64,000 nt of DNA from an uncultured delta proteobacterium (lineage in GTDB: Bacteria > Desulfobacterota > Binatia > UBA9968): positions 416,001-480,000 of the forward strand of contig CAVUVW010000014.1 in NCBI GenBank assembly GCA_963745035.1, written 5' to 3'. Under the pieces are notes generated by a model that was not told the DNA's origin, searched no databases, and was given only the letters and a program-made list of their open reading frames with translations. Position numbers and translations under genes: made by a program. Numbering within the stretch: position 1 is the stretch's first letter; every line of letters begins with the position of its first letter. Below, piece after piece: positions 3,855 to 23,294 of the stretch.

Positions 3855-5929
3855 ATGGCTAGAGGCTCTCTACTACAGATATTGCCGCGAATCGTCGCGC
3901 GCGTGCCGGCTAAGGTCCACGCCAAGTTACTTATCGCGTTCCTCGCTATTACAGTGCTGCTAATCGCGCTCGGCGCCGTCGGTCTCCAGGCGCTGAACGA
4001 TACCAACCGGCGCGCCAAGGATCTGGTAGAGCTGCAGCGCAAAATCGCCGCTTACCGCCAACTGCAGCACGACACCACGGCGCAACTCTACAGCGTCGCC
4101 TCCGCTCTTTTGGTCCACGACGAGCGCACGTTGACGCCACGCTGCGCCAGCTCAATCAATTCGGCTACGACCTCGACCGGCTTCAGTTCGTAGCAAAGGA
4201 TGAAGTTGAGCTGCTCGCTCAGGTGCGTAAGGAGTACGATCAGTTCATCAAGGTGGTGAGCCAGTCCGTCGAGTTAATCCGCGCCGGCAAGATCGAGGCA
4301 GGAAATCAATTGCAAATCGCTCAAGCCAATCCATTGGCTGAACGGCTCGAGCGCCTGATGAACCAACTCGTCAATCGCGCCGAAGCCGACATGGTCGCCA
4401 GCATCGAAGCGAGCGACGCGGCATACATTCACTCGCGACGGATCGTGATCGGCTTTGCCGTGGGAAGCATCGCGCTGGCTCTTCTCCTCGGTTACGCCAT
4501 CTCCTGGTCCGTTGTCGGCCCCGTCGAGCTGATGGATGCGCGCTTTCGAGGAAATCGCCTCAGGTAACTTCTCCCAGCGCATCGAAGTTCCCAACCGAGA
4601 CGAGCTCGGGACCCTGGCGGACAACCTGAATCGGATGAGCGAGAAACTGGACCGCTTATATCAGCAGATTGAAACTCGCAATCGCGACCTGAGCGAATCA
4701 TTGGAGCAACAGACTGTAACCAGCGAGATCCTACAGGTTATCGCAAGCTCACCCACCGACATTCAGCCGGTCTTGGATGTGGTGGCTGCAAACGCGGCGC
4801 GTCTATGTGACTCCCAGGATGCTCAGATCTATCGTGTCGAAGGCGACCTCGTGCGGAAAGTGGCAAGCCATGGCGAGTATCCCTGTCGCCCTTGCGGTGC
4901 GGAGAGACCCGTCCGATCAGGCGCGGTTCCGCAATCGGACGGGCCATTCTCGACCGGCAGACAATCCACGTTCACGACATTACGGCCGAGCGCAAAGAAA
5001 ACTACGCGGACATTCAGCACGCCGTCGAGTTGGATATTCGAACGGAGCTCGCCACTCCGTTGCTCCGCGAGGGCATCCCGATCGGAGTCATTCTGATTCG
5101 CCGCACAGAAGTTCGTCCTTTCACACACAAACAGATCGCTCTCCTTAAGACCTTCGCCGACCAGGCAGTGATCGCCATCGAGAACGTTCGTCTGTTTCAC
5201 GAAATCGAAGAGAAGAGCAGACAGCTCGAAGCCGCCAACAGCACAAATCGGATTTTCTCGCGCGCGTCAGCCACGATCTGCGCACGCCGCTCAATGCGAT
5301 CATGGGTTTCACACGCATCGTGCTGCGCCGGCTGGGCGGCCAGATCCCTGATTTGCAGAAGGAGAATTTACAGAAAGTCCTGATCAGCGCCGAGCATCTG
5401 CTCAGCCTGATCAATACCCTGCTTGACCTCGCCAAGATCGACGCAGGCAAAATGGAAGCGGTCGCCGAGACTTTCCGCGTCGAGGACGTCATCCACATGA
5501 CGACGGCTACGGTCGAGCCGCTGCTCAAAGACGGGCGCGTGCGGATCGTCAGGGACATCCCTCCGGATCTGCCGCCGCTCAAAACCGACCGTGACAAGCT
5601 CAAACAGATTCTTTTCAATCTGTTGAGCAACGCGGCCAAGTTTACCGAGCAGGGCGAGATCAAGGTTTCCGCCGCGCGCGAAAACGGCAACCTGAAGCTG
5701 GCGGTCGCCGACAGCGGCATCGGCATGACACCGGCGGCGCTGGAGCATATATTCGAAGAATTTCAGCAAGCGGAGAAAACCACCGCCAGCAAATACGGCG
5801 GCACCGGCCTGGGATTAGCAATCGTAAAAAAATTCGTCAACTCTCATGGGCGGCGACATCGCCGTCGAGAGCGAGGAAGGCAAAGGATCGAAGTTTACGA
5901 TCACATTGCCGATGGAACTGAAACAATGA
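3855..5929 (+). CDS. Membrane sensor histidine kinase (TM-periplasmic helical sensor-TM-HAMP-GAF-HisKA-HATPase), several frameshifts
   Basis: Pieces 3855-4193, 4223-4567, 4536-5096, 4892-5383, 5302-6006; HAMP 'NRDELGTLADNLNRM', 'SHDLRTPLNAIMG', 'NLLSNAAKFT', 'GGTGLGL'; stop TGA at 5927-5929. Confidence 0.88.
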
Positions 5930-5935
5930 GAACAA

Positions 5936-5956
5936 TTTTGGATTTTCGATTTTGGA
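5936..5956. repeat. 7-nt tandem repeat (ATTTTGG/ATTTTCG)
   Basis: ttttggattttcgattttgga; the reverse-complement array lies at 6824-6854. Confidence 0.7.
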
Positions 5957-5976
5957 CGTTTAAGACTTTTAAAATT

Positions 5977-6009
5977 CCCTCTCCCACCGGGAGAGGGCAA
6001 GGGTGAGGG
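5977..6009. repeat. REP-like palindrome, left copy flanking DUF559 gene
   Basis: ccctctcccaccgggagagggcaagggtgaggg, with internal hairpin ccctctccc/gggagaggg. Confidence 0.85.
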
Positions 6010-6022
6010 CCAACCTGTACAA

Positions 6023-6407
6023 AATGGATGCTAAGGTACCTATGCTGCGCGATCGCGCACGACAGCTACGCCGCAATCAAACCGACGTGGAAGGCAAATT
6101 GTGGTCCCGGCTGCGTGCGCGCCAACTCTCTGGTGCCAAGTTCCGCCGTCAATATCCTATCGGAGCGTTTATCGTCGACTTCTGCTGCTACGAACGACGC
6201 TTAGTGATCGAACTCGATGGCGGTCATCACGCTCAGCACATGGATGCTGATCAAAGTCGGACTGATTTCTTCGTTTCCCAAGGTTACCGAGTTCTACGCT
6301 TCTGGAACAATGAAGTCGTAGAAAACATCGACGGAGTATTGGAACAAATTGCGCACACCCTCACCCTGTCCCTCTCCCAGAGGGCGAGGGTTGGGAAAGA
6401 GAGTTAG
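6023..6407 (+). CDS. DUF559 (Vsr-like PD-(D/E)XK) endonuclease domain protein
   Basis: 'ARQLRRNQTDVEGKLWSRLR', 'KFRRQYPIGAFIVDFCC', 'VIELDGGHH', 'GYRVLRFWNNEV'. Confidence 0.9.
6358..6390. repeat. REP-like palindrome, right (inverted) copy
   Basis: ccctcaccctgtccctctcccagagggcgaggg is a near reverse complement of 5977-6009. Confidence 0.85.
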
Positions 6408-6420
6408 GAGCGTAGAGAAA

Positions 6421-6786
6421 ATGGACAAAAAAACAATCCTCGTTGTCGATGACACCGACTGGAATCGCGATCTGCTCGTGCAACTGCTCGAAGAGGACTA
6501 CACGGTGCTCCAAGCCGTGGACGGCGACCAAGGCGTGAAGATGACGCAAGAGGAAAAGCCCGACCTTATCCTCATGGATCTCGGCATGCCGGTGATGGAT
6601 GGCTGGGAAGCGACGCGGCGTATCAAAGCCAACGCTGCGCTTAAACAAATTCCGATCATCGCCGTCACTTCTCACGCCATGGTGGGCGACGAAATCGAGG
6701 CGCGCAAGGCGGGCTGCGACGATTACCTGCCCAAGCCGATTGATGAAGACTTGCTGCTGCAAAAGATCAGAAAGTTCCTCGCATGA
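6421..6786 (+). CDS. Single-domain response regulator (DivK/CheY-like)
   Basis: 'ILVVDD', 'PDLILMDLGMPVMDG', 'AVTSHAM', 'KP'. Confidence 0.92.
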   Translation: MDKKTILVVDDTDWNRDLLVQLLEEDYTVLQAVDGDQGVKMTQEEKPDLILMDLGMPVMDGWEATRRIKANAALKQIPIIAVTSHAMVGDEIEARKAGCDDYLPKPIDEDLLLQKIRKFLA

Positions 6787-6823
6787 TCAGGCATGGAGTC
6801 ATTTCAGCCTGATCCCGGGCGGC

Positions 6824-6854
6824 AATCGAAAATCTAAAATCCAAAATCGAAAAT
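6824..6854. repeat. 7-nt tandem repeat (AAAATC[G/T/C])
   Basis: aatcgaaaatctaaaatccaaaatcgaaaat. Confidence 0.7.
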
Positions 6855-6862
6855 GGTGGGCC

Positions 6863-7945
6863 ATGCCGAATAAGATTCTTATCGTCGACGACGAGCCTTT
6901 CAATCTCGACCTCTTGGAACAGGAGTTGATGGAGTTCAACTATGAGATCGAGAGAGCCAACGACGGCGTGGAAGCCCTGGAGAAAACCCGCAGCTTCAAC
7001 CCCGATGTTATCCTGCTCGATTTCATGATGCCGCGGATGAACGGTCTGGAAGTGGTCAAGCGGCTGAGGGGAGACCAAGAGCACAGAGGCATCCCGGTCA
7101 TCCTGCTGACCGCGAAAGCGACCCAGGAGGATAAAGTCGCCGGGCTCGACGCCGGCGCGGACGACTACGTCACCAAGCCCTTCGACGCCATCGAGCTGCT
7201 CGCGCGGGTACGCGCGATGATGCGCCTCAAGGAGATGCACGACACACTCCAGGAGTGGAACCGCTCCCTCGCCGATACGGTAAAAAAACAGGTGGCCGAT
7301 TTGGAGCGCATGGCCCGCCTCAAGCGCTATCTCGCGCCGCAGATCGCCGAGACGATCCTCGGCGAAGACAACGACCTGTTCAAGACCCACCGCAGAGAAA
7401 TTACCATCCTCTTTCTCGATCTGCGCGGTTTTACCGCATTCTCCGATAACGCCGAGCCGGAAGAGGTGATGGAATTCCTGCGCCATTATCACAGTGAGAT
7501 GGGCCAGTTGATCTTCAAGTACGAGGGTACCTTGGAGCGTTTTATGGGCGACGGGATTGTGGTAATTTTCAACGACCCGATTCTCTGCGAGCGCCACGCC
7601 CACAAGGCGATTGAGATGGCCATCGAGATGCGTGATCGGGTAAAAGAGTTGCGGACAACTTGGCGAAAAAAAGGGTATGATCTCGACCTGGGCGTCGGCG
7701 TTTCCTCCGGCTATGCCACTCTCGGCACGATGGGCTTTGAAGGACGCATGGACTACGGTACCGTCGGCAACCTGCCGAACCTGGCGTCGAGGCTGTGCGC
7801 CGAAGCCAAGGGCGGACAGATTTTAACCGACCAAAAAACCATGAGCCGGCTGGAGGACGCTTTCGAGGCGGAAGCGATCGAAGAACTCAATCTCAAGGGA
7901 ATCCATCGGCCGGTGGCGGCTTTCAACATTATTGGCATCAAGTGA
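6863..7945 (+). CDS. Response regulator fused to class III adenylate/guanylate cyclase
   Basis: REC 'ILIVDDEP...LLDFMMP...KPF'; cyclase 'LFLDLRGFT', 'RFMGDG', 'NLASRL'. Confidence 0.92.
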   Translation: MPNKILIVDDEPFNLDLLEQELMEFNYEIERANDGVEALEKTRSFNPDVILLDFMMPRMNGLEVVKRLRGDQEHRGIPVILLTAKATQEDKVAGLDAGADDYVTKPFDAIELLARVRAMMRLKEMHDTLQEWNRSLADTVKKQVADLERMARLKRYLAPQIAETILGEDNDLFKTHRREITILFLDLRGFTAFSDNAEPEEVMEFLRHYHSEMGQLIFKYEGTLERFMGDGIVVIFNDPILCERHAHKAIEMAIEMRDRVKELRTTWRKKGYDLDLGVGVSSGYATLGTMGFEGRMDYGTVGNLPNLASRLCAEAKGGQILTDQKTMSRLEDAFEAEAIEELNLKGIHRPVAAFNIIGIK

Positions 7946-7952
7946 CGATTCG

Positions 7953-8888
7953 ATGAACGAACCGATTGCACGCGGCGCCAAGGGAGCCGCGCGATTCAGA
8001 ATCAAATTTTGGGGCGTGCGCGGCAGTTATCCGACGGTAGATCCGGCAACCCTTGCGGTCGGGGGCAATACTTCCTGCGTGGAAGCCGAGGTCGACGGGC
8101 GCCGCTTGATCTTCGATGCCGGCACGGGAATCATTCGGCTCGGAAAGGAACTGTGCAACGGCGCATCATCCCCTCCCGCCGCGTATGTTTTTTTGAGCCA
8201 CACTCATATCGACCATGTTTTGGGACTTTGCTTTTTCGAGCCCCTCCTGACGGCCACAGGGCGGACTTTTATTCTCGGTCCCGGCGCAACCCGTGGGGCG
8301 TTGACACGGAGCTTGCGCCACCTGACAAACAGCCATTTGTTTCCCGTTTCTCTCGACGAGCTCAAAGGAAAGAAAGAAATTTTCTCACTCTCAGGCGGTG
8401 AGGTGATTTCCTTCGGATCGTCGGGCACCCGACCTAAGATCGAGGAACCGCGAGCCGCCGAGGGCTTCGAAGCTGGGGAACTGAGAATAACGACTTTGAA
8501 GAGCGCCGCGCATCCGTTAAACGGCGTCATGCTGTACCGGGTTCATTACCAGAACAAGAGTTTCGTTTTCGCCACGGATATCGAGCAACAGGAAGGCGGC
8601 TATCCCGAAATCATCGAGTTTGCCCGTGGCGCGGACCTATTGATCCATGACGCCCAGTATCTTCAGGACGAATACTTTTCACGCACCAAACCGCGCAAGG
8701 GCTGGGGTCACAGCACCATCGACATGGCGGTCGATGTGGCGCAAAAAGCCGGTGTCAAACGCCTCGCGCTCTTCCATCACGAACCGACTCATGACGACAA
8801 AACGATGAATAGCATTCAGAAGCAGGCCAAAGCACTTTTTCGCTCGACCATCGTTGCCCATGAAGGGATGGTCATCAATCTTCTCTAG
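7953..8888 (+). CDS. Metallo-beta-lactamase-fold hydrolase (possible cyclic-nucleotide phosphodiesterase)
   Basis: 'FWGVRGS', 'GGNTSC', 'DAGTG', HxHxDH 'HTHIDH', 'GWGHS', 'FHHEP'. Confidence 0.85.
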   Translation: MNEPIARGAKGAARFRIKFWGVRGSYPTVDPATLAVGGNTSCVEAEVDGRRLIFDAGTGIIRLGKELCNGASSPPAAYVFLSHTHIDHVLGLCFFEPLLTATGRTFILGPGATRGALTRSLRHLTNSHLFPVSLDELKGKKEIFSLSGGEVISFGSSGTRPKIEEPRAAEGFEAGELRITTLKSAAHPLNGVMLYRVHYQNKSFVFATDIEQQEGGYPEIIEFARGADLLIHDAQYLQDEYFSRTKPRKGWGHSTIDMAVDVAQKAGVKRLALFHHEPTHDDKTMNSIQKQAKALFRSTIVAHEGMVINLL

Positions 8889-8890
8889 TA

Positions 8891-9928
8891 GTGAGTAGTG
8901 CAGTTGACGTGAACAATCATCTAAACCGCAAAACTCGCCGCGAACGCGATAGTCGACCGAACATGTTCCTGACTTTCACCGCCTTGATGCTCTTCCTTGG
9001 CGCTCCGGTTCTCGCGCTGGCGCAATCGCCGGCTCGAGTGGGGATACTGGTCCAGGAGATGGAACGTGCCCAGGCACAGGCTATCAAAGGCCTTGGCGAG
9101 GGACTCAAACATCTCGGTTATCAGGAGCGAAAGAATCTTTTTTTTGAAACGCGCAACGTCAAAGGCAATCGCGCCGCGCTGCAGCCGGCGGCCAGCGAGC
9201 TTCTGGCGCGCAACGTTACCGTCATTTTTACGACCGGGACCAGCGCGACACGCGCGGCAATGGCGGCCACCCGCGAAGTTCCGGTCGTATTCATTCATCC
9301 CGGCGACCCCGTTGCCGCCGGTTTGGTCAAAAGCACCGCGGAGCGCGAGAAAAATCTGACCGGCGTAGCGGCCTATGCTTCGTCGCTAATCGAACAGCGT
9401 GTCGTGCTTTTTAAAGAAATCTTCCCCGAGCTGCGCAAGATTCTGGTCTTCTACGACGCCAACAACAATTTTTCGCGCGCCAACTTCGCCGTTACCGAAG
9501 CTGCAGCAAAAAAATCCGGCTTGGAAGTTGTCGGTTACGGCATCAAGTCAGCCGACGAACTGAAAAACACGCTCGGCAGTTTACGGAGCGAACCTGGCTC
9601 GGGGCTTTTCCAATTCGCGGACGATCTGTTCGAAAGCGAGCCTGAGTTTATTTTCACCACTGCGCGCGAAAAGAAGCTGCCCACGATGTTTAATGAGGAA
9701 GCATGGGCGATTCGCGGCGCGCTAGCCGCCTACGGGCCGAGCTATTTCGAAATGGGCCGCCAGGGCGCCCGGCTCATCGACAAGATCATCAAGGGCGAGA
9801 AGCCGGCATCCTTGCCGATCGAGCCGGCGTCTAAGTTCGATCTCACGCTCAATTACCGAACCGCTACCTTTATCGGCCTTCATTTCTCGCGGGCAATGTT
9901 GAAAAAGGCGGACAAAGTCATTCGATAG
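8891..9928 (+). CDS. ABC_sub_bind family substrate-binding protein
   Basis: Signal peptide, 'DPVAAGLVKS', 'NLTGV', 'YGPSYFEMGRQGA...DKIIKGEKPASLPIE'; start may be 8909 or 8963. Confidence 0.85.
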   Translation: MSSAVDVNNHLNRKTRRERDSRPNMFLTFTALMLFLGAPVLALAQSPARVGILVQEMERAQAQAIKGLGEGLKHLGYQERKNLFFETRNVKGNRAALQPAASELLARNVTVIFTTGTSATRAAMAATREVPVVFIHPGDPVAAGLVKSTAEREKNLTGVAAYASSLIEQRVVLFKEIFPELRKILVFYDANNNFSRANFAVTEAAAKKSGLEVVGYGIKSADELKNTLGSLRSEPGSGLFQFADDLFESEPEFIFTTAREKKLPTMFNEEAWAIRGALAAYGPSYFEMGRQGARLIDKIIKGEKPASLPIEPASKFDLTLNYRTATFIGLHFSRAMLKKADKVIR

Positions 9929-9939
9929 CGCGCATCGCC

Positions 9940-12600
9940 ATGGAGCAGCTTGCCGATACGATCCGCAGTATCCCGATCTTCTCCGGGCTTTCGCGCGAGG
10001 ATATCGCCAAGATCCTCGGCAAAATGGAAGAGACATCGTGCGGCGCCGGAGTGACGATATTTTCTCAAGGCGAGCAAGGCGACGCGTTCTATCTGATTCA
10101 ATCCGGCGCGGTGCAGGTCGTGTTGGAAGGTGCCGGGGGGAAATCGGAGGTCGTAGCCATTCTTGGACCGCGGGACTGGTTCGGCGAAATGGCTTTGCTC
10201 TCGGGCGAACCTCGCTCGGCAACGATCGATACGGTCAAGGAAACCGTTCTTTGGCGTCTCCGGCGCGAGGACTGGGACGAATTGATCGAAAAGCACCCGA
10301 CCTGGTTACTGCAGTTTTGCACCACGCTCAGCAAACGGCTTTCCCATGTCGATCGGCAATATTCGACCGGTCGCGAGGCTTTTAATTCGCTCGCCGAGGA
10401 GTTTTACGCATCGCTATCACCGGACGAGCAGTCGTTTTTTCGTCAAGTATCGCTGCTCGGACCGGTTGATAAAGATACTTTAACGGCGCTGGTGCAAAAC
10501 CACGCGCTGAGCAAGCTCGTGACCGAGTTCGGCTACAGCCAATCCCCGCTGATTCGTCGCTTGGAAAATGGCAAGTACGAACTGCACAGTTTCTTTAAAG
10601 ATTTTTTGCGCGAAAAGTTGGTGGCGCTCGATGGCGCGGAGACCCAGCAGAGACTTCACGCCGAGTTTGCCGAACGGTACGAAGCTCTCGGCGAACTGCG
10701 CGAGGCGATTTATCACGCGCTGCAAATCCAAGATTGGCCAACCGTCATCCGGCTCTTCAGCGAGGAAAAAGAGCACCTCCTCGCCGAATCACCGCTCTTT
10801 GTTAAGAATACTCTGGAGAGTTTTCCTCCGGAGCAACTTCTGGCCGATCCGCGGCTGGTCACCCTCCGGGGGAATGCATTGATTCAGCTGGGCGACTTCG
10901 CCGGAGCCTATCGCGCTTATCGTGAGGTGCTGGTCCAGAAGTCACCGGGAGCGGTCGCGGCCGATGCCGTCGCGGGTTACCGTCGAATGGCGGAGAACTT
11001 CGCGCAACGAAAGGATTATGCGCAGGCGATCAATCAACTGCGCAGCGCGCTAACCCTGATCGGCCAGGAAGCGGCCGCCGCCGATGGTTTTCGAGACAAT
11101 GCTCAAAAAATGAGCTGGCCGAGTTTTTCTGCCCTTCCTGCTTTGGAAAGCGGCGCGGCGGCGCAGCCGCGAAGTCGCCTGAGAGCGTGGACCTCGATCC
11201 TCGGTCCGTCGCCGAGTAAATGGCTGGGCGCGCTGCTCGGACTTGGTTTGGGCGGTTACCTTTGGTTTGGCCAACCGGATATCGGGCTAGACCCGTCGGC
11301 AAATAAGTTGCTCGGCCTCATTTCATTGACGTTAGCCTTCTGGGTTTTTCGCGTCCTTCCGGATTACGGCGTGGCCCTCGTGTTTGCCATGGTAATCATC
11401 CTAACCAAACTGGAATCGGCCCAGACCGTTATGGGAGGCTTCGCCAGTACCACTTGGTTCATGACCCTGGGTGTACTCGGACTCGGTGCCGCGATCACCG
11501 GCTCCGGATTATTTTACCGCCTCTCGCTGCATCTCGTCCGCATGTTTCCGCTCAGCTACTATTGGCAGATTGTCGCCACCGGCATCATGGGCGTCGTCGT
11601 GATGGCGTTGATTCCGCAGCAAACCGCGCGCACGGTGATCACCAGCCAGATGCTGGTCAATCTCTCCGAAAGCCTGGGCTACAAGACTCCATCGAAAGCG
11701 TCGACCGGCTTATTCGTCGCCAGCTTCCTCGGCCTGGGCCAATTGGGGTTTCTCTTCTTGACCGGATCGACGACCAGCTTGATCGCCTGGGGCTTGTTAC
11801 CCGACGACGTGCGCGCGCAATTTACCTGGGGTTACTGGTTCCTCGCCGCCTTGCCGCCGACTCTCGTTGTATTCATCATCATCCTCTTGTGCACGATATT
11901 TATCTATCGGCCCGAGACTCAACCGAAGATTTCTTACACTCTGGTGCGAACGCAGCTTAGTATTCTCGGACAGTTGTCGCATAAAGAGTGGATCAGTCAG
12001 GGCGTGCTGCTTTTCACCGTCGGGGGCTGGCTTAGCGCGCCGTACCACGGGATCGACGGCGCGTGGATCGCGATCATCGCCTTTGCGACGCTGATCAATA
12101 CCGGCGTCATAGACTGGAACATGCTCCGCAAGGGCATCGACTGGGAATTGCTCATTTACATGGGCGTTACCTTGAGCATTCCGACGCTTTTAAGACAGGC
12201 AAAGATCGATCAATGGCTGGTCGATGCGATCTCGCCGTTGATTCTTCCCTTCATCGACAGCCCGGCCTGGTTTTTCGTGGTGATCGCTCTATTGACCTAT
12301 GCCCTCAAGCTCATTTTTACGAGCTTCCTTGCGGTGGTGACGCTCTGCGTCGCATTGCTGCCGCTGTCGATCGACGTCGGCATGAGTCCGTGGATCATTG
12401 CGATGATCATTTTAATCGCCTCGGAAGTCTGGTTTTTCCCCTATCAAGTCGACTGGCATATGCTCGCCTACTCGACCACCGACGGCAAAGGATTCTCCTA
12501 TCCGCTGATGCTGTGGATCAACCCGCTCTACGCCTTCGCTTATCTTGTAGCCCTCATTGCAGCTATTCCGTACTGGAGGTACTTGGGACTGATCGGCTAA
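9940..12600 (+). CDS. Fusion protein: cNMP-binding domain + MalT-like helical/TPR region + SLC13/DASS anion transporter
   Basis: 'IFSQGEQGDAFYLIQSG...FGEMALLSGEPRSAT'; 'YELHSFFKDFLRE...LHAEFAERY...EAIYHAL'; multi-TM C-terminal half with 'FLFLTGS', 'TWGYWFLAALPP', 'IDWELL', 'PYQ'. Confidence 0.85.
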   Translation: MEQLADTIRSIPIFSGLSREDIAKILGKMEETSCGAGVTIFSQGEQGDAFYLIQSGAVQVVLEGAGGKSEVVAILGPRDWFGEMALLSGEPRSATIDTVKETVLWRLRREDWDELIEKHPTWLLQFCTTLSKRLSHVDRQYSTGREAFNSLAEEFYASLSPDEQSFFRQVSLLGPVDKDTLTALVQNHALSKLVTEFGYSQSPLIRRLENGKYELHSFFKDFLREKLVALDGAETQQRLHAEFAERYEALGELREAIYHALQIQDWPTVIRLFSEEKEHLLAESPLFVKNTLESFPPEQLLADPRLVTLRGNALIQLGDFAGAYRAYREVLVQKSPGAVAADAVAGYRRMAENFAQRKDYAQAINQLRSALTLIGQEAAAADGFRDNAQKMSWPSFSALPALESGAAAQPRSRLRAWTSILGPSPSKWLGALLGLGLGGYLWFGQPDIGLDPSANKLLGLISLTLAFWVFRVLPDYGVALVFAMVIILTKLESAQTVMGGFASTTWFMTLGVLGLGAAITGSGLFYRLSLHLVRMFPLSYYWQIVATGIMGVVVMALIPQQTARTVITSQMLVNLSESLGYKTPSKASTGLFVASFLGLGQLGFLFLTGSTTSLIAWGLLPDDVRAQFTWGYWFLAALPPTLVVFIIILLCTIFIYRPETQPKISYTLVRTQLSILGQLSHKEWISQGVLLFTVGGWLSAPYHGIDGAWIAIIAFATLINTGVIDWNMLRKGIDWELLIYMGVTLSIPTLLRQAKIDQWLVDAISPLILPFIDSPAWFFVVIALLTYALKLIFTSFLAVVTLCVALLPLSIDVGMSPWIIAMIILIASEVWFFPYQVDWHMLAYSTTDGKGFSYPLMLWINPLYAFAYLVALIAAIPYWRYLGLIG

Positions 12601-13068
12601 AGCTTCATTGGCATGCCTTTCTGATTCAGCGTGTCACTTCGCAAGTTTCACGCATTCACTCCTGGCCCGGACCGAACGCGCCTTCAATCAATTCCCTCAG
12701 CCCAATCTTGCAAGCCGCGAGTGGGGACAGTGGCGATCATGACCCCGCTGTCGGCTAGATCAAGATGCCACGGAATCATGGGACGGCATGATCGTACTGA
12801 GGAAAAATACACTGAGTACTTTGTTCACACCCATGTATCCAAAAGTTTACGCCGGCGTAACCAAGTTTACAGCGGGTTAAGCTAATCCGTCCATCATGCG
12901 GAGCGAGACAATGGACTAGCATGTTGCTGAAAGACTTCCCTTATCCTGCGAGAGCCTCGGATGAGAAGTTGAAATGATTGACAATGTCCAGTTGTTGGTG
13001 AGCCTGCCGAAACATTCCCACTTTTTTTCAGCACAAAGTAGTCTCAAGGTTGTTTAGCAATGACACGA

Positions 13069-13084
13069 TGGCATGCTCCGTGCT
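13069..13084 (+). promoter_or_regulatory. Putative sigma54 (-24/-12) promoter upstream of the secreted-protein/TPS genes
   Basis: TGGCATGCTCCGTGCT versus consensus TGGCACG-N4-TTGC(A/T), with correct GG/GC spacing. Confidence 0.5.
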
Positions 13085-13415
13085 CTTTTGTGCTCGCATT
13101 CGTCAGCGATTCCTAAACCATCGCTGATTTTCATTTTTCGTGGTGACAAGTTCGGGTCGTCTCTGGGCTATTTGGCGCATTTTGATCGGACTTGACAAGG
13201 AGGTTCGACTCTGCTTAGCTAGCGCACTTTCGCGCCTCGCCCTCTGGGAAAAGTTGTTGAACGAAGGAGAAACGAGCTTCTGGTTTCTCTCGTTTGGACG
13301 GCGATCGCTACGAAGTTGGTCCTAGTCAAACGCGCGGGGACGCGCAGTCTCAACGGGTTAAAACAGCCAGCTCTGTTTCGCTCACACGAGCTGCAACAAA
13401 AAGAGGAGGCATAAA

Positions 13416-14800
13416 ATGAAAAAGCTATTGTCCTGGTTGCCGAGCAGTCGGTCGTTCACAAGATTACTTTCGATCAGTGGCTGTTGCGGTCGTGGCCTTC
13501 GCGGCGCTGGAGTTGTTGGCCGTCCAGCAGGCGCTCGCGGGCAAGTGCTGTGTGCTGGTCACGAATCAGCTGCGAAGCACACGACTGCCTCTGCGATTCT
13601 TCAACTTCATGCAATATCACCAGGAACGGCAAGTTCACGGTGACCGCGAGTTCGACGGTCTTAGGACCTGTTGGAACTTCCGAAGTAGTTACGGTGCGGC
13701 CAGCCAACATCACATCCACGATCACTTGCGAGAACGCTCGACGGAACCGGCGAACATCACCGACCTCTGGACCCACAAGTTTCACACAAAGTGCACTACT
13801 GCAATGTCGAAGTACACCGAGTTGCGTAACATAATGACGCTGGCCTCTGTCAATTCGACCTCAAGTATTCTCGGTCTGATCCCAGCGAGTCTCAACGACG
13901 TGCAAACTCCCTGCCGCGGACGACACATCTAAGCTACTTATGCAGGCATCCTGCAGCGAGGCCAGCGGCGGTAACCCGGAACACTGGCGGTAACGGGCAC
14001 GCTCAAGTGTCCTGCAAGCTTGCAACCCACAGAACAGTCGGCGTGCGCATCCACTGGGGAGTTTGGCAGCTCCCCTTGGCTGTGGGCTGCCGTCGCGACG
14101 GCAACCAGGACTGTATCCTGAACTTGGGCATCGCTGGAGTGTCTTCAGGGCAATGTCCCACGTCTTTCCGGCCGGTACCGCGCTGGTTCCGCAGGTCCCG
14201 GACTCTCGCAGGGCAAGTGCTGAGCTTTTCCCAAACAGTACGAGGGTCTAGCCTGCGGCCCGGACAACCCAAGTACTTGCATTTGGCTCACTAGAGGCGA
14301 CTCGGTACTGCAGCGCGGGACTCTTTGCTAACGCTCCCGGCCTTCCCGTAGATTGCACACCGAATCAGGGACCGAACCGCTCACCGGACTCGGAACCGCG
14401 ACAGGCTGCTGTTCAGTTCGACGTCACCTTCTCTCCGACGACCCTTAACATCAACTGCGGCACTAACAACAACGACACCTGGCACTTTACGATCACTGGC
14501 AACCAGCACTTGACGGACTAACACGGATCGTTACGACATCGTCCCTGGCGGTCGAAGGCGTAGCTGGGTCAGGTCACCTGCGAACTGCTTACAAATCGGC
14601 GGCAAACACACTGACTTGCCACATAAACGCGTGTAACCAAATCAGGGCAACTGGATCTAGGGTCAGTTGTTTGTGCAAACAGGAACCCCAACGGGACGGT
14701 GGACCTCACGGTAACGGGAACGATCTTTGAGCGGAACAGACCGCGATCATCGGCGAGGATCTAAAGCCACAAAACGTCGGGAACGTGTACTTTGCAGGCT
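13416..14800 (+). CDS. Secreted Cys-rich, Thr/Ser/Gly-rich protein, heavily frameshifted (end approximate)
   Basis: RBS gaggagg + ATG; signal peptide ...AVVAFAALELLAVQQALA; coherent beta-rich segments in shifting frames (CDSSTSCNITRNGKFTVTAS; DGNQDCILNLGIAG; QFDVTFSPTTLNINCGTNNNDTWHFTITG; VCANRNPNGTVDLTVTGT). Confidence 0.55.
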
Positions 14801-14875
14801 GGCAGGTGATCGCCGCGCTGCCTACCGCCAACAGGCGGTGGGGCAGCGCTATCTGCTGCGACAGAGGGCTCATTC

Positions 14876-17800
14876 ATGTCTAGGTCACGGTGGCACGTGC
14901 GCGCCCTCGTGCTTGGCGCTGCGCTTTACGCGTTCGGCGCGGTCGTGTCCCTCACGGCTATGCGCAGGTCGCCACGGCGATCACGTCCGATGGCACGCTC
15001 GGTACCACGGTAGCGCCGATCCGGCAACCTGTATAACATCAACGGCGGGACGATCAAGGGAACCAATCAATTCCACAGTTTCGGCCAGTTCAGCGTTGGC
15101 ACGGGCGATATCGCGAGTTTCAATGGTCCCGCCGCACGATCCAGAACATTCTGAGTCGCGTGACCGGGGGAACTCGCTCTGAGATCGACGGCACGCTGCG
15201 ATCCACGATATCCGGTGCCAACCTGTTCTTGATGAATCCCAGCGGTATCCTGTTCGGGCCCAATGCGCAGCTCGACGTGAGCGGGTCGTTTCACGCAACG
15301 ACGGCAGACTATATCGGCCTTGCGGATGGGGTGCGCTTCAACGCGGTTCCGTCATCAGCCGACAACCTGCTCACCACCGCGCCCCCGGCGGCCTTTGGCT
15401 TTCTCACCTCGAACCCCGCGCCTATCGACGTGCAGACCGGCGCGTTCGACTCGACGTCTCTGGGTTAAAGAACGTACTGCAAGTACCGGCCGGAAAGACG
15501 TTATCCTTTGTTGGGGGACCCATCAACATTGGGCGCGGCGCCCGGGGCCTTCGCTGGCGGCTTCGTGTTCGCGCCCGGAGGCCGCATCAACCTCGTGAGC
15601 GTCGCCTCGCCGGGCGAGGCCAGATTCGACGGCACTGGCTTCAGCGTGGATACCTTTGCACGGCTCGGTGATATCAGCATCAAGGGAAACAGCGTCATCG
15701 ACGGGAAGGAGGTGTTCATACGCGGTGGGCGGCTCGTGATCGAGCAGGCGATTATCTATGCCCGGCTTTTTCTTTCAATTCGGCGTGCCTGTCGACCCCC
15801 CCGACGGCGGCGAGGTCAACATTCAGGTCTCTGATAGCGTCAACATCAAGGGGCCGCCGCCGGTCTTCAATGAATTCTCCGGCATCCTGACCTTTGCCGG
15901 CCTCCCGTTCCCTGGCGACGTGCCCCATATCAGTATCAAGGCGTCCTCCATATCCCTATCCGAGGGCGCGAGTAGTTCAGACCGTTAGACAAGGCCCTGG
16001 AAATCCGGCGAATATATCAATCGAGGCCGATACCGTGGAGGTACGAAGCGGAGCGTCCATAGCCGCCATGAATGTTTTCGAGGGGCCGGGCGGCACGCTT
16101 ACCGTAAACGCTCGAAATGTGACGCTGGACTCGGCAGGGCAGTGACCAGTTCACCGGGCTCTCGGCGCAGGCCGATTTCCATCCGGACTACGGTTCACTG
16201 ATTTTGAGACGGGATCATTTGCGGGGGCATTTTCGCCGTCTCTTGCAGTTGGCGGATAGCGGATCGATCACGGTCAACGCCACCGGCACGCTAACGATGC
16301 GCGGCAGCGCCCAGATCAGTACGGACAACTTTGCGTTTGGCAAAAGTGGCAATGTCACCGTCAACGCCGGAGACATGCTCCTGGTAGGCGCCGGGACCAA
16401 CACGGGGTTGATCTCTGCTCAAAGCAGGCTCGCCGGACGGTCAGGGGACGTTACGATCAACGCGACCGGAAGTATCGACATGCAAAACGGGTTCCGGATC
16501 AGCGCCAATACACTGGGCAGCGATGACGCGGGCCAGGTGAACGTACGCGCCGGTCGGTCTATCACCATGACCGGCAACTCAACCTTCATATCGAGCGTGA
16601 CGGGTCAGCCTGTGGATAGTGAGCTCGACAGCTTCGCACAGCTGTTTGCCCGTTCTTCGGACGCGTGGAATGATTCTCGACTACCCCTCACTGCGCGCGA
16701 CGCTCGGAGTAGCGCCGGGTCCGAATGACCTCATGAACGTGCTTGCCGCGCTGAGCACGATCTCGGACGGGGCCGGCAATCCCTTGGTGGCCGTCACCGA
16801 CTTCACGCCGGGTGCAGGGGGCAAAGTATCGATAACGGCACCGGTGTTGGCTGTTAACGACGGTGCACATATAGAGACCTCCACCGTCTGGGACGGCAAC
16901 GCCGGCGCGATCGCGCTCAACGTTGGCTCCCTGACCCTGCGCGATGGAGCTATCATCGGCAGCCGCAGCGGCGCTGTGCGTCCGGACCGCGGATTTACCG
17001 TCGGTACGGGCAATGCCGGCACGGTAGACATCGCCGCCACGGGTACCGTCGAGATCTCCGGGCGTTCGCCGACCTCGGGAGAGGGCAGCATCGTAACCAC
17101 TAACACCTTTGGCGATGGCAATGCGGGCAATATTTCCCTGAGCGCCAATCAGGTCAACGTTCAGAATGGTGGCATAGTTACCTCCGCAAGTGGCGGAACG
17201 GTTGACGGTCAGTTGTTCGTCGGGCGCCGGGAATGCCGGGCAGATCAATGTGTCTACACCGACGTTAACAATGGCTGATGGGACGATATCGGTTGCGACA
17301 TCGGGAGCGGGAAGTGCAGGGAGCATTTTGCTGAATGGTAACACTCTTAGCCTCACCGGTGGGTCGCAGGTTGTGAGCAGCACGACTGGCGCTGGTCAAG
17401 GTGGGAGCGTGGCAGCCACAGCGGGAGAATCGATCTTTATTTCTGGGAGTGGGAGTGGGTTACTCAGCACGGCCTCTAGCACCGGCAATGCCGGTCAGAT
17501 TACTGTTTCCACGCCGACGTTGACGATGGCAGAGAGTGGCACGATCTCGGTGGCTACTTCTGGCGCCGGAAATGCCGGCAACATCTCGCTTAACGTCGGC
17601 GACTTTACACAGACAGGTGGAGCGCAGGTTGTGAGCAGCACGACCAGCACGGGCCAGGGTGGGAATCTGACAGTCACTGCGGCAACCGAGTCGGCCTCGA
17701 TCTCTGGGCTGGGAAGCGGGCTATTCAGCACGGCATCGAGCACAGGGAATGCGGGAGAGATTACTGTTTCCACTCCGACCTTGACGATGGCGGACAGCGG

Positions 17801-20355
17801 CACGATCTCGGTGGCTACTTCTGGCGCCGGAAATGCCGGCAACATCTCGCTTAACGTCGGCGACTTTACACAGACAGGTGGAGCGCAGGTTGTGAGCAGC
17901 ACGACCAGCACGGGCCAGGGTGGGAATCTGACGCTTGCGGCAACCGAGTCGGCCTCGTTCTCTGGTTTAGGAAGTGGGCTCTTCAGCACGGCGTCGAGCA
18001 CGGGGAACGCGGGAGAGGTTACTGTTTCCACGCCGACCTTGGCTATGAACAACGGAGCGATCTCGGTGGCGACTTCTGGTGCTGGAAGTGCCGGCAACAT
18101 CTCGCTCAATGTCGGCAACTTTACACAGACAGGTGGAGCTCAAGTCGTGAGCAGCACGACCGGCACCGGCACCGGCGGCGCTATAACAGTCACCGCGACC
18201 GATGCAGCCTCCATCGCCGGGCCGGGCGGCGGACTATTCAGCACGGCATCGAGCACAGGAAATGCCGGTCAGGTGACCGTAACTGCACCGGCATTGGCCA
18301 TGGACAATGGCGGAACGATATCGGTGGCCACCGAAGGGGTCGGAGCCGCCGGCAATGTCTCGCTTAGCGTCAGCGAGTTGACTCTTGGCAGTGGGGCGCA
18401 GATCAGTAGCAGCACCAGCGGTGGTGGAGCAGGTGGGACGCTGGCGGTCGCTGCCGGCGAGTTGGTTTCCATTTCAGGTGCAGGGAGCGGATTATTCAGC
18501 ACGGCATCGAGCACGGGAAATGCGGGAGAGATTGCTGTCTCTGCGCCGGCATTGACCATGGCTGACGGCGGCGAGAATCTCGGTGGCCACTGAGGGTGCG
18601 GGCAACGCCGGTAACATCGCACTGAACGTAAGCAACTTTACACAGACAGGTGGAGCTCAAGTCGTGAGCAGCACGACCGGCACCGGCACCGGCGGCGCCA
18701 TAACAGTCACCGCGACCGATGCAGCCTCCATCGCCGGGCCGGGCGGCGGACTATTCAGCACGGCATCGAGCACAGGAAATGCCGGTCAGGTCACCGTAAC
18801 TGCACCGGCATTGGCCATGGACAATGGTGGAACGATATCTGTGGCCACCGAAGGGGTCGGAGCCGCCGGCAATGTCTCGCTTAGCGTCAGCGAGTTGACT
18901 CTTGGCAGTGGGGCGCAGATCAGTAGCAGCACCAGCGGTGGTGGAGCAGGTGGGACGCTGGCGGTCGCTGCCGGCGAGTTGGTTTCCATTTCAGGTGCAG
19001 GGAGCGGATTATTCAGCACGGCATCGAGCACCGGCAATGCGGGGCAGATTACCGTAGCCGCGCCGTCATTAGCGCCCGTGCCGACGTTGGCTCTGGCAGA
19101 GGGCGGGACAATATCGGTTGCGACATCGGGAGCTGGAAGCGCCGGGAGCATTTTGCTGAACGCGAACAATCTTAGCCTCACAGGTGGGGCACAGGTCGTA
19201 AGCAGCACGACCGGGGCCGGTCAGGGCGGAAGCGTGACGGCCAACGCTACCATCTCGGGTTCACTCTCCGGTCAGGGTACGGGTTTGTTCAGCACGGCAT
19301 CGAGCACGGGAAATGCGGGAGAGATTGCTGTCTCCACGCCGACCTTGACAATCGCTGACGCCGCAAGAATCTCGGTGGCCACTGAGGGTGCGGGCAATGC
19401 CGGCAACATCGCACTGAACGTAAGCAGCTTCACACAAACGGGCGGCGCTCGGGTTGACAGCAGTACAAGCGGCATTGGGTCGGGAGGAGATATAGCTATC
19501 GTGGCAGCTAACTCGACCTCCATCTCCGGTCCAGGAACCGGGCTGTTCAGCACGGCATCGAACTCCGGGGCCGGGGGCGATATCAATGTACAAGCGCCGC
19601 AGCTTAAGATCCTCGACGGCGCGACGATGTCGGCGAACAGCACCGGTACCGCGACGGCCACGGCCGGAAATGTCAACATCGTCACCAGCGACCTCGCCAT
19701 GCAGAGCGGTAGCATCACGACGCAGTCCACGCTAGCGGATGGCGGTAATATCTCGATCACCACCACGGGATCAACGAGCAATCTGACCAACAGCCAAATC
19801 ACCACCAGCGTGGCAAGCGGCACCGGTTCAGGAGGCAACATCACGATTGGTTCCGGGGCTCAGCCGTTTGATTTTATTCTTTTGAATGATAGTGAGATCC
19901 GCGCCGATGCCTTCGGCGGACCAGGCGGTAACATCAACATATTTGCCAATGTCTTTCTTCCTTCCGATAGCATCGTCAGCGCTTCTTCGGCTCTGAGCAC
20001 TCCCGGAGTCATCGACATCCAGGCGGTGTTTACTGATGTCAGCGGCAATGTGGCACCATTGCCGGAGGCGCCGCTTCAGGCGACAGAGCTTCTGCGCGCA
20101 TCTTGCGCAGCCCGCTTTGCGGGCGGGAAAGCGAGCAGCTTGGTGGCCGGCGGTCGCGATGGTGTCCCCATCCAACCGGGTGGACTCCTACCAAGTCCGT
20201 TTTATTCGGCAAGCGGGGCTGGCACTTCCGTTACAGGCATAAAAACATCCGACAACGATCTGCCCGCGCGATTCAGTCTGCTTGGGCCTGCTGATTCAAT
20301 GAATCGACGTTTGATTCAATATAGCCTGTTGCCAAACGTTAAATGCGCCTTCTAA
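14876..20355 (+). CDS. Filamentous haemagglutinin-like TpsA exoprotein (multiple frameshifts)
   Basis: Signal peptide then 'AQVATAITSDGTLGT'; TPS domain 'SRVTGG...ANLFLMNPSGILFGPNAQLDVSGSF'; beta-helix GNAG repeats; C-terminal 'LRASCAARFAGGKASSLVAGGRDGVP'. Confidence 0.88.
17230..19580 (+). repeat. About nine ~86-aa (255-276 nt) tandem repeats within TpsA
   Basis: 'GL(F/L)STASSTGNAG' recurs near 17463, 17724, 17981, 18237, 18494, 18754, 19012, 19288, with a variant at 19546; 18115-18514 is near identical to 18632-19031. Confidence 0.9.
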
Positions 20356-20487
20356 GCGGTGACAGGGCGCAGATCTGAAAATATCCGGTTCCGCGCTTCG
20401 ATTCGCCATTCCTGTGCGAGGGAACGCGGCGATTCGTCCAGTCAACCTAGCCGCCCTGCGTTTTTCTGTCCCAAAGAAACCGAGAGA

Positions 20488-22619: not shown

Positions 22620-23294
22620 TCACTCGTTGGTGGAAGGCAATCCAACCTGAGTCAGCAGAGCTGCCCGCTGCTTGTGCAGTTCTACGTTCTGCGGCGCGGC
22701 GTCGATCAGATCCGAGATCGACTGCAAGGCGTCGTACCAAATTCCAGCTTCAGCATAGATGAAGGGCTTCTCGTTGTTGGCCGATTGCGCTAGCTTGGCT
22801 TTGAGCGGTTCCGGCATGTCGACCCGCTCAATGATACCGCCGGCCAGTATGTCTTTAGAGCGCCGGTCGGCATCGGGAACCACCGCGACAAACCATCGAT
22901 ACGCCATGCCCGGCTTGAGATGAATTTTATAGTCAACGAGTCGAACCTGCTGAATTCCCGACTTAACAGGAGCAGGAAGCCGTGTTTCCAGGATCGGTTG
23001 AATGCCCTGCGGCTCCATCACGGTCAGTTCGATCGGCAGGGAGGTCACGTTGGAGATGAACCAGTAAAGGGACGGTTGTTCGCTGGTCGTGAACCCACTG
23101 TGATCCGGCGCCAAAACCGAAAGAACGAAAACGTTCTTGTCACCTCTAGTGCCGCCGCCGACGCGGCCCCCGGGTGCTCCCCGGGGCGGAAGTTTATAAA
23201 CCGGAACTGTCGCATCCGCCGCTAACAAAGGTAACACCGTCGCTAGAATGAAAATCGCAGCTGAACAGCAAACCATCGGCCTTAGGTACTTCAT
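22620..23294 (-). CDS. DUF928 domain-containing exported protein
   Basis: Signal peptide; 'PPRGAPGGRVGGGTRG', 'TTSEQPSLYWFI', 'YAEAGIWYDAL', 'LLTQVGL'. Confidence 0.85.
   Translation of the reverse strand: MKYLRPMVCCSAAIFILATVLPLLAADATVPVYKLPPRGAPGGRVGGGTRGDKNVFVLSVLAPDHSGFTTSEQPSLYWFISNVTSLPIELTVMEPQGIQPILETRLPAPVKSGIQQVRLVDYKIHLKPGMAYRWFVAVVPDADRRSKDILAGGIIERVDMPEPLKAKLAQSANNEKPFIYAEAGIWYDALQSISDLIDAAPQNVELHKQRAALLTQVGLPSTNE

Follow-up and report, generated by a model that had tools for sequence, protein, structure and literature searches.

In the classical DASS/SLC13 carrier VcINDY, Ser-Asn-Thr (SNT) motifs at the tips of both hairpins bind Na+ and substrate, the Asn residues of these motifs binding the Na+, and in carriers of the yeast Pho90/Pho87 type a fused SPX domain plays a regulatory role. 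Cyclic-nucleotide-binding domains (CNBDs) gate membrane proteins of other kinds, the sperm Na+/H+ exchanger SLC9C1 amongst them. We report here the computational analysis of a gene at 9940..12600 (forward strand) of a 64-kb stretch of DNA from an uncultured member of the Binatia (contig CAVUVW010000014.1; hereafter the window). The gene joins a CNBD to a winged-helix/TPR module of the kind found in STAND regulators and to a DASS-fold membrane domain, and we favour, with rather more confidence than doubt, the view that its product is a secondary carrier regulated by a cyclic nucleotide monophosphate (cNMP).

Little is documented of how second messengers control bacterial secondary transporters after translation. 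According to a 2023 review, genomes show regulatory domains fused to transporters, including CNBDs fused to MFS transporters, and none of the UspA fusions has been characterised in transporter regulation (PMC10710835). Solute-binding proteins (SBPs) on elevator-type carriers have been called an emerging theme in the abstract of the TAXI-GltS study, which draws on linkage, translational coupling and fusions to make the case for a secondary transporter of a new, SBP-dependent kind (PMC12344293). The family described below would be a compact and self-contained test case, with messenger synthesis, breakdown, receptor and effector encoded in one operon and with many natural variants that differ in the length of the linker. 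It would also add to the elevator carriers known to have taken on binding proteins, offer an example of a STAND winged-helix/TPR module that functions in the absence of its ATPase and open a first functional route into cNMP signalling in the Binatia, an abundant uncultured soil lineage.

Architecture of the fusion protein

The gene is a single open reading frame (ORF) of 886 amino acids plus stop, and both the ORF list and the translation agree with the initial annotation, made from the sequence alone, that it is uninterrupted. The three-part architecture proposed there is likewise found by Pfam, NCBIfam, a profile search of the PDB and Foldseek. The features of the gene, in window coordinates, are as follows.

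9940..12600, + strand: whole gene, CNBD, STAND-like winged-helix domain (WHD)/TPR module and DASS-fold transporter (ORF list, translation, full-length relatives)
9940..10356, + strand: cyclic-nucleotide-binding domain, residues 1-139, taking in the start of the long C-helix (model helix 120-158) (Pfam PF00027)
10180..10224, + strand: phosphate-binding cassette (PBC), F81-GEMALLSGEPRSAT-95 (conservation across 52 sequences)
10357..11094, + strand: MalT/STAND-like winged helix and arm/TPR helices, residues 140-385, without a P-loop (NCBIfam MalT, PDB profile, Foldseek)
11095..11211, + strand: variable linker, residues 386-424, predicted to be disordered (low pLDDT, low identity)
11212..12597, + strand: DASS/SLC13-fold membrane domain, residues 425-886 (Pfam PF00939, Foldseek)
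11614..11631, + strand: first hairpin tip, P559-Q-Q-T-A-R564, P-S-N-T in classical DASS (HMMER alignment, family columns)
12316..12330, + strand: second hairpin tip, F793-T-S-F-L797, F-A-S-N-T in VcINDY (HMMER alignment to VcINDY and DiT chains)
12421..12459, + strand: clade-specific motif SEVWFFPYQVDWH (828-840) in the region of the last helical hairpin (conservation in close relatives)

Three independent domain matches at the E-values given below, in an ORF of this length, lie far beyond chance. An AlphaFold2 model of the full-length protein, calculated from a 52-sequence alignment (mean pLDDT 80.6, pTM 0.54), shows in order an eight-stranded CNBD barrel, a very long helix spanning residues 120-158, a winged-helix unit made up of helices 161-199 and strands 205-215, helices stacked in pairs as far as residue 383, a segment of low pLDDT and the membrane domain.

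Pfam cNMP_binding (PF00027) matches residues 35-119 (E 6e-23; 81.1 bits against a cutoff of 27.5). The best matches of the domain in a sequence search of the PDB are the PKA and PKG regulatory domains, Epac, CRP-family proteins and the channels SthK and MloK1, whose CNBDs match at E 2e-12 to 3e-10; CRP-family proteins also match the N-terminus of the full-length model in Foldseek, and the beta-barrel is modelled with a pLDDT of about 80-90. The signature of a CNBD is the Gly-Glu and Arg-(Ser/Thr)-Ala of the PBC, which touch the ribose and the cyclic phosphate. The cassette of the window protein, which is the stretch FGEMAL..PRSAT that had been singled out as a CRP-type cNMP cassette (residues 81-95), carries this signature. 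In 52 full-length relatives, the most distant at 25% identity, G82 and E83 never vary, and the conservation of R92, S93 and A94 is 90% or more. The 'RSAT' of the cassette does not tell cAMP from cGMP. In the CNBDs of CRP, PKA and the CNG-type proteins the C-helix after the barrel is the part that moves on ligand binding; in our model this long helix continues straight into the winged-helix domain.

The middle part of the protein had been likened to the winged-helix/arm/TPR region of MalT, without its P-loop, and several lines of evidence now point the same way. Positions 252-415 of the NCBIfam MalT model align to residues 148-310 (E 3.7e-12), and a profile of residues 140-385, built from the window and 36 loci, finds a MalT structure (8bob, residues 257-409) as its top sequence match in the PDB (E 6.8e-8), in an alignment that spans the 'YELHSFFKDFL' and 'LH..A.RYE...EAIYHAL' stretches on which the likeness had been based. 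Modelled alone with AlphaFold2, the domain reaches a pLDDT of 88 and a pTM of 0.81, and its two top Foldseek matches are STAND proteins, the TPR-containing 6mfv (E 1e-4) and MalT 8bob (E 3e-4; root-mean-square deviation 3.3 A over 155 columns), followed by generic TPR proteins and Apaf-1; there is also a weak Pfam TPR_2 match at residues 309-331. A Walker A motif, [AG]xxxxGK[ST], was sought across all 886 residues and none was found. Neither Pfam nor NCBIfam gives a match to a LuxR-type DNA-binding domain in the protein, the middle module being followed by the DASS domain. On sequence and modelled fold, then, the middle part is best described as the winged-helix and arm/TPR module of a STAND protein whose ATPase has been lost. 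The family PF25873, a putative MalT-type winged-helix family on which this assignment does not draw, appears in the precomputed domain annotation of 111 of the 120 best listed relatives. A search with residues 140-400 for other architectures bearing the module was uninformative, the best 120 of its 211 matches all belonging to the CNBD-DASS family. By profile comparison the module is still recognisable in the 899-aa relative P0142 (E 3e-5, 207 columns) and partly so in the 798-aa relative P0143 (E 6e-4, 115 columns).

Between this module and the membrane lies a segment that the model leaves below a pLDDT of 50 (residues 379-423). The ortholog at locus L017 (L017:10001-12667) has one in-frame stop, at codon 412, within the unconserved linker. 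Such a stop would yield a soluble CNBD-WHD/TPR protein and a separate DASS protein, and may be a natural split or a sequencing error.

The C-terminal part belongs to the DASS fold and Pfam family, as the claim of a full SLC13/DASS-like membrane domain had anticipated. Pfam Na_sulph_symp (PF00939) matches residues 446-884 (E 2e-34; 119.8 bits against a cutoff of 27), covering positions 22-471 of the 472 in the profile, and a weaker CitMHS match is also present. The best Foldseek match in the PDB is AtDiT2.1 (9mcu; E 1e-15, TM-score 0.86 by target), followed by DiT1, LaINDY, NaCT, NaS1, VcINDY, NaDC and yeast Pho90; the matches also include 6wtw, 7jsj and 4f35. The fold and the nearly complete profile would lead one to expect an elevator mechanism.

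The hairpin tips differ from those of the classical carriers. When the SNT motifs were looked for by alignment at both tips they were absent, PQQTAR (559-564) and FTSFL (793-797) standing in their place. At the first tip the HMMER alignment sets PQQTAR against 'PSTTAR' of DiT2.1 and 'PSVSAR' of DiT1, so that these nearest solved relatives also lack the Asn of the first motif; P559 is invariant across the 52-sequence alignment, and more distant members of the family read P(S/T/N)xxx(R/K). The clade-specific motif at 828-840 aligns with the ...LPVA... stretch of VcINDY and is kept as (S/T)E(V)WFFx(Y/F)Q(V)DWH in close relatives, with Q836 invariant in all 52 sequences. The protein scores 135.3 bits against the NCBIfam model for the 'DASS family sodium-coupled anion symporter' (TIGR00785), short of the cutoff of 198.6. 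Judged by motif or by subfamily score, it is not a sodium-coupled dicarboxylate/sulfate symporter, and dicarboxylate or sulfate, named in the initial annotation for uptake assays, is an unsafe guess for the substrate, given the loss of the SNT motifs and the binding protein encoded next door.

That annotation had named separate genes in relatives, a sign of assembly fusion, as one finding that would overturn it. The relatives carry the same uninterrupted architecture. A word-indexed search gave 678 matches among 8000 scored candidates, and the best 120 clusters of these, drawn from NCBI, ENA, JGI and Logan assemblies, are 74-99% identical to the window protein over 91-100% of its length and all carry PF00027 and PF00939; their source names include 'SLC13 family permease [Candidatus Binatia bacterium]' and 'anion transporter'. 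An exhaustive search of 50%-identity representatives returned 595 proteins at E up to 1e-30, with full-length, single-stretch relatives at 28-34% identity amongst them. N-terminal cNMP_binding and C-terminal Na_sulph_symp occur together in 55 of the 62 representatives scanned with Pfam; 22 of these are 866-914 aa long, 17 are 747-844 aa, 13 are 627-698 aa and the other three measure 1039 aa, 1005 aa (with Peripla_BP_6 at the C-terminus) and 1380 aa (with CstA at the N-terminus). By these matches the CNBD-DASS proteins form a large family whose insert varies, the tripartite form being one major version. Within it, the 1380-aa P0203 is a CstA-CNBD-DASS fusion, and P0227 and P0253 are DASS proteins with a C-terminal peptidoglycan-binding domain (PG_binding_1).

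A single scan of species-representative genomes gave 60 distinct loci, mostly in metagenome-assembled genomes labelled Candidatus Binatia or 'Deltaproteobacteria', with a few bins under other phylum labels; 34 of the loci each contributed one clean full-length gene to an alignment. That an error of assembly or gene calling has joined separate genes could draw on the stop in the linker of the L017 ortholog, on split tblastn matches at L008, L046 and L052, and on two listed clusters that each miss one end (P0272 without the CNBD, P0273 without the DASS domain). Against these stand the same unbroken architecture in the 120 top listed clusters, which come from several sources, the 34 clean genes and divergent full-length representatives down to 25-34% identity, and such an error has a negligible chance of being the explanation. 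The candidate of an assembly fusion was rejected, since listed clusters, distant representatives and genome loci share the gene; the fusion is real.

Compared with the window protein, close relatives average 73% identity in the CNBD, 50% in the WHD/TPR module, 14% in the linker and 76% in the DASS domain, the membrane domain being the most conserved part (62-90% identity). Ratios of dN to dS by the Nei-Gojobori method for eight pairs are 0.06-0.22, 0.08-0.18 and 0.05-0.09 for CNBD, WHD/TPR and DASS, respectively, and 0.36-0.73 or saturated for the linker; these values are rough, as dS exceeds 1 in most of the pairs, and the least saturated pair (L001) gives 0.15, 0.11 and 0.09 for the three folded modules. 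All three are under purifying selection.

Neighbouring genes: a cyclase, a candidate phosphodiesterase and a binding protein

Upstream of the transporter gene, and on the same strand, lie the following genes, in the order kinase, DUF559, receiver, receiver-cyclase, hydrolase and binding protein.

4536..6006, + strand: HAMP/HisKA/HATPase histidine kinase in at least two frames (HAMP 4536..5096; HisKA/HATPase 5302..6006) (Pfam)
6003-6407, + strand: DUF559 (endonuclease-like) ORF between the kinase and receiver genes
6349..6786, + strand: stand-alone response-regulator receiver (Pfam Response_reg, E 4e-29)
6863..7945, + strand: response-regulator receiver (REC) fused to a class III nucleotide cyclase (Response_reg, E 9e-32; Guanylate_cyc, E 5e-23)
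7932..8888, + strand: metallo-beta-lactamase (MBL)-fold hydrolase with HxHxDH present, candidate cyclic-nucleotide phosphodiesterase (Pfam Lactamase_B_2, E 5e-20)
8963..9928, + strand: periplasmic solute-binding protein, PF04392 (ABC_sub_bind) (Pfam, E 2e-52)

The listed ORF of the REC-cyclase starts at 6599, with the ATG at 6863 as its likely start. Its closest structure is CyaB of P. aeruginosa (3r5g, E 3e-38), chain 2w01 also matching, and both metal-binding Asp motifs are kept. The purine-specifying pair is Arg/Gly, where CyaB has Lys/Thr and 2w01 has Glu/Gly, and the Arg is kept in 19 of 20 cyclase orthologs. The MBL protein matches the NCBIfam model 'cyclic nucleotide-degrading phosphodiesterase' (NF041851) at E 7e-11, far below the cutoff, and the nearest Atlas clusters to it bear Anti-Pycsar_Apyc1 on 20-32% of their members; hydrolysis of cyclic mononucleotides by this protein is a lead suggested by these matches. 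The order of genes from kinase to cyclase recurs upstream of the cyclase in related loci, where the kinase is continuous; the copy in the window is either frameshifted or affected by a sequencing indel. A DUF559 homolog occupies the same place at L026 (51-392).

Neighbourhoods were counted in those 27 loci where 4 kb or more of sequence flanks the gene at each end. A class III cyclase domain is found in 16 of these, an ortholog of the MBL gene or a PDEase_II gene in 14, and one or the other in 21. Of the full set of 60 loci, 33 have a cyclase, and in 31 of these the closest one is no more than 2.4 kb away. At least three non-orthologous types of cyclase are represented, linked to REC, to CHASE2 or to AAA_16/TPR_MalT. 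The genes occur in three or more arrangements, that of the window being one. At L021 the arrangement is a PDEase_II gene on the opposite strand, then SBP, transporter and CHASE2-cyclase; at L059 a 5'-nucleotidase on the opposite strand is followed by SBP and transporter and by a CHASE2-cyclase, again on the opposite strand; and at L041 a cyclase-AAA_16-TPR_MalT protein lies just downstream. The recurrence of non-orthologous cyclases beside the gene speaks for a functional link rather than for an inherited gene order.

A 5'-nucleotidase stands upstream on the opposite strand in 8 of the 27 well-flanked loci. Over the 60 loci this gene (Metallophos and 5_nucleotid_C) is found in 12, about 1.1-1.4 kb upstream and beyond the binding-protein gene (L020, L027-L029, L031, L032, L034, L035, L038, L044, L054 and L059), with a signal peptide in both of the loci examined for one, L027 and L059. 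In other loci its position is held by a phosphodiesterase-like gene, and it might hint at a nucleotide-derived substrate.

The conservation of the PBC and the cyclase and phosphodiesterase-like genes that travel with the transporter together strengthen the link to cyclic nucleotides that the sequence suggests. CRP/FNR-type folds accept other ligands, and the CNBD-like domain might bind another effector or be purely structural, with the cyclases nearby by coincidence, a view that can point to the non-canonical specificity residues of the cyclase and to the well-flanked loci that have neither cyclase nor phosphodiesterase gene (6 of 27). It has to contend with a Gly-Glu ... Arg-Ser-Ala signature that is invariant or at least 90% conserved, with best sequence matches that are bona fide cAMP or cGMP receptors (PKA-R, PKG, Epac, SthK and MloK1), and with the recurrence of three non-orthologous cyclase types and two phosphodiesterase-like types within about 2.4 kb, and we regard it as quite improbable.

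The second conserved neighbour is the binding protein, whose gene, like the loss of the SNT motifs, did not figure in the initial annotation, the architecture given there being otherwise sound. The listed ORF of the SBP is 8891..9928, with the signal peptide at M25-A44 of that ORF, and its stop codon lies 11 bp before the ATG of the transporter; the closest PDB structures are 3lkv, 6hni and 3lft. In the 47 loci that include the start of the gene and at least 1100 bp upstream, an SBP ortholog (44-87% identity) lies directly upstream on the same strand in 41, the six others being L026, L033, L042, L043, L046 and L051; at L045 and L047 an SBP lies downstream on the opposite strand. The gap between SBP and transporter is 31 bp or less in 38 of 43 cases and the SBPs begin with signal peptides, so that an exported SBP is, as a rule, encoded immediately beside the carrier. 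One relative, P0187, has a type I binding domain (Peripla_BP_6) fused to the C-terminus of CNBD-DASS with no signal peptide between them, which fits a periplasmic C-terminus, as do the two DASS representatives with a C-terminal PG_binding_1.

Co-folding of the DASS domain (425-886) with the mature SBP gave weak support, with a score of 0.33 (runs 0.35, 0.30 and 0.33), the best of three controls scoring 0.00; the runs agree in at least 87% of contacts, with partner pLDDT of at least 83. The mark used is reached by 116 of 157 solved complexes and by 2 of 215 mismatched pairs, and at 0.60 or under it is reached by only 18 of the 157 together with both of the passing mismatches; the calibration holds only roughly here, as custom alignments were used. 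A search for long proteins that contain the SBP found nine, none of them with a DASS domain, a negative that is weak evidence. Taking adjacency and spacing together with these results, the carrier is probably served by the binding protein, an assignment that we make tentatively.

Those PF04392 members whose structures are known take L-Phe, L-Tyr or L-Trp as ligands and work with ABC importers (PMC10443332, PMC6816091). The SBP might accordingly be unrelated to the carrier, serving an ABC importer elsewhere or acting as a sensor partner of the kinase, in which case the carrier would act alone and still be regulated by cNMP. This is possible, if on balance doubtful. The ABC-type family and its ligands, a fused PF04392 form that bears an ABC permease, the extra PF04392 paralogues beside the kinase in several loci, the weak complex prediction and a clade without an SBP (L033, L042 and L046) all favour it. 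It sits less well with the persistence of the adjacent SBP in locus types that lack the kinase (L021, L059), with the tight spacing and with the P0187 fusion; moreover, neither the first 16 kb of the window nor the ORFs scanned at seven loci, to about 4.5 kb from the gene, showed a matching ABC permease.

The extra PF04392 paralogues, which are 30-36% identical to the operon SBP and lie beside the histidine kinase at L001, L003, L019, L024, L053 and others, could be periplasmic co-sensors of the kinase. Paralogue pairs of the transporter gene occur about 40 kb apart on CAVYDL010000009.1 (L010, L033) and CAVXEP010000025.1 (L008, L042). Within each pair one copy adjoins binding-protein and MBL genes; its counterpart, at about 57% identity, is preceded by a HemN-like radical SAM gene and followed by DUF898 and M48 peptidase genes.

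Elsewhere, the window holds a two-partner-secretion cluster (14727-22287, + strand; 22620-23294, - strand; 23647-25956, - strand). Its TPS-domain exoprotein is spread across several frames (ORFs at 15160, 15508, 15894, 16204, 16619, 17190 and 18583), which suggests a pseudogene or indel errors in the assembly, and it also includes a ShlB/FhaC-type POTRA transporter (20359-22287), a DUF928 protein and a CHAT-TPR (MalT-like TPR) protein. A scan of the whole 64 kb with Rfam gave no matches at gathering scores. A promoter and terminator scan of 4000-13600 gave three promoter-like and nine terminator-like sites, against 3.9 and 10.1 in shuffled sequence, and is uninformative on the limits of the operon.

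A proposed mechanism and its alternatives

The scheme that follows starts from what is observed, namely the fold, the domains with their conservation and the genes nearby, and reasons from there to nucleotide binding, the direction of regulation, a need for the binding protein, the substrate, the coupling ion and the dimer state. The protein would be an inner-membrane secondary carrier of the elevator type, with a DASS fold and a cytoplasmic N-terminus made up of the CNBD, a long helix, the STAND-derived WHD/TPR module and a flexible tether. A signal would be received by the upstream-encoded histidine kinase and receiver-cyclase (or, in other genomes, by a CHASE2- or STAND-type cyclase), and the cyclase would make a 3',5'-cyclic nucleotide locally. 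Binding of the nucleotide to the CNBD would shift the C-helix, and this motion would reposition the WHD/TPR module relative to the cytoplasmic face of the transporter, presumably a dimer, so as to permit or to block the elevator movement, until the adjacent MBL hydrolase resets the signal. Since the tether is long, disordered and unconstrained, regulation would come about as the cytoplasmic module docks on the inner face of the carrier and leaves it again, with no rigid lever. Outside the cell the co-transcribed PF04392 SBP probably captures the substrate and passes it to the carrier, as in the TRAP, TTT and TAXI-GltS systems. The wider proposal that a private, operon-encoded circuit of kinase, receiver-cyclase and Apyc1-like phosphodiesterase switches uptake, with the STAND-derived module transducing from sensor to elevator, is more speculative than that of a regulated carrier, and we consider it rather less likely than not.

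The middle module is also open to another interpretation, in which the protein is a transceptor or scaffold. The DASS domain would mainly sense a periplasmic ligand delivered by the SBP, the WHD/TPR module would recruit the cyclase, the phosphodiesterase or receivers, and the CNBD would give feedback, making the protein the hub of a cNMP circuit. A putative protein-docking role of the TPR part had already been put forward in the initial annotation. TPR and STAND arm modules bind proteins or ligands, and the best structural matches of the module are 6mfv and MalT 8bob; the module is under purifying selection, the gene sits amongst signalling genes (histidine kinase, two receivers, cyclase, MBL), and the SNT transport motifs are lost. 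The membrane domain, on the other hand, is complete (TM-score 0.86 to DiT2.1 by target, near-full Pfam profile) and is the most strongly conserved part at 62-90% identity and dN/dS 0.05-0.09. Further, 13 of the 55 CNBD-DASS representatives (627-698 aa) keep CNBD and DASS with no room for a scaffold, which implies that the core function needs none. We judge the transceptor or scaffold to be improbable, and prefer the regulated carrier.

Several observations weigh against a cNMP-regulated, binding-protein-served carrier. The replacement of the SNT motifs and the NCBIfam score below cutoff mean that the domain could have lost or changed transport, and its nearest solved relatives, DiT1/DiT2.1 and LaINDY, are exchangers, a poor fit with one-way uptake driven by a binding protein. 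On the signalling side, the non-canonical Arg/Gly pair leaves the product of the cyclase, and so the messenger, not assignable; six of the 27 well-flanked loci show no cyclase or phosphodiesterase, and the cyclase linkage is given as raw counts. The roughly 40-residue tether to TM1, disordered and unconserved, makes rigid mechanical coupling unlikely, and the arrangement of the domains in the full-length model, with a pTM of 0.54, is tentative. As to the binding protein, PF04392 proteins normally serve ABC importers, one of the nine fused forms carries an ABC permease (PF02653), co-folding of SBP and DASS domain was passed only weakly, and the paralogous clade of L033, L042 and L046 has neither an SBP nor cNMP genes nearby.

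Comparison with described systems

Public annotation already shows the domains of this protein. Our search of the literature, which covered few subscription journals, turned up no paper describing a CNBD-DASS fusion, in keeping with the statement in the initial annotation that no characterised example was known. What is new is an uncharacterised combination of known kinds, namely DASS carriers fused to a regulatory domain (Pho90), CNBD-gated channels and SBP-dependent secondary transporters.

With the classical DASS/SLC13 carriers, VcINDY, NaCT and NaDC as well as the exchangers LaINDY, DiT1 and DiT2.1, the protein has its fold and Pfam family in common. It differs from them in its additional N-terminal cytoplasmic residues, about 425 in number, in hairpin tips that read PQQTAR and FTSFL in place of SNT, in a score below the NCBIfam subfamily cutoff and in a conserved SBP partner. 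Yeast Pho90 and Pho87, which combine SPX with a DASS fold, likewise place a cytosolic small-molecule sensor N-terminal to the transporter, and the Pho90 structures 8r33-8r35 are amongst the Foldseek matches; here, however, the sensor is a CNBD with a STAND-type WHD/TPR module instead of SPX, the protein is bacterial and an SBP is encoded next to it.

The K+ channels MloK1 and SthK have, as this protein does, a canonical CNBD on a membrane transport protein. The channels carry this domain at the C-terminus and are coupled to it directly, whereas here it is N-terminal, separated by the STAND module and a 40-residue tether from an elevator carrier. Fusions of CNBDs to MFS transporters have also been found, according to a review (PMC10710835). 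By analogy, the protein would work like the SPX-DASS carriers of the Pho90 type and the CNBD-gated channels.

MalT and other STAND regulators (PH0952, 6mfv; Apaf-1) have a winged helix and arm/TPR region homologous in sequence and fold to the middle module. The protein lacks their NTPase (NBD/HD), Walker A motif and LuxR domain and has a CNBD in place of the nucleotide switch; judged from its sequence, it is not a STAND ATPase.

In the TRAP, TTT and TAXI-GltS systems, as here, an SBP with a signal peptide is encoded in tight spacing beside a secondary carrier of the elevator type, and one relative of the present protein carries a fused binding domain. The SBP in our case belongs to PF04392, an ABC-type family, and not to DctP, TAXI or TctC, the dependence of the carrier on it is putative, and the membrane part is of the DASS fold and is joined to an intracellular cNMP sensor. 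By this comparison the protein may operate like the TRAP or TAXI-GltS systems.

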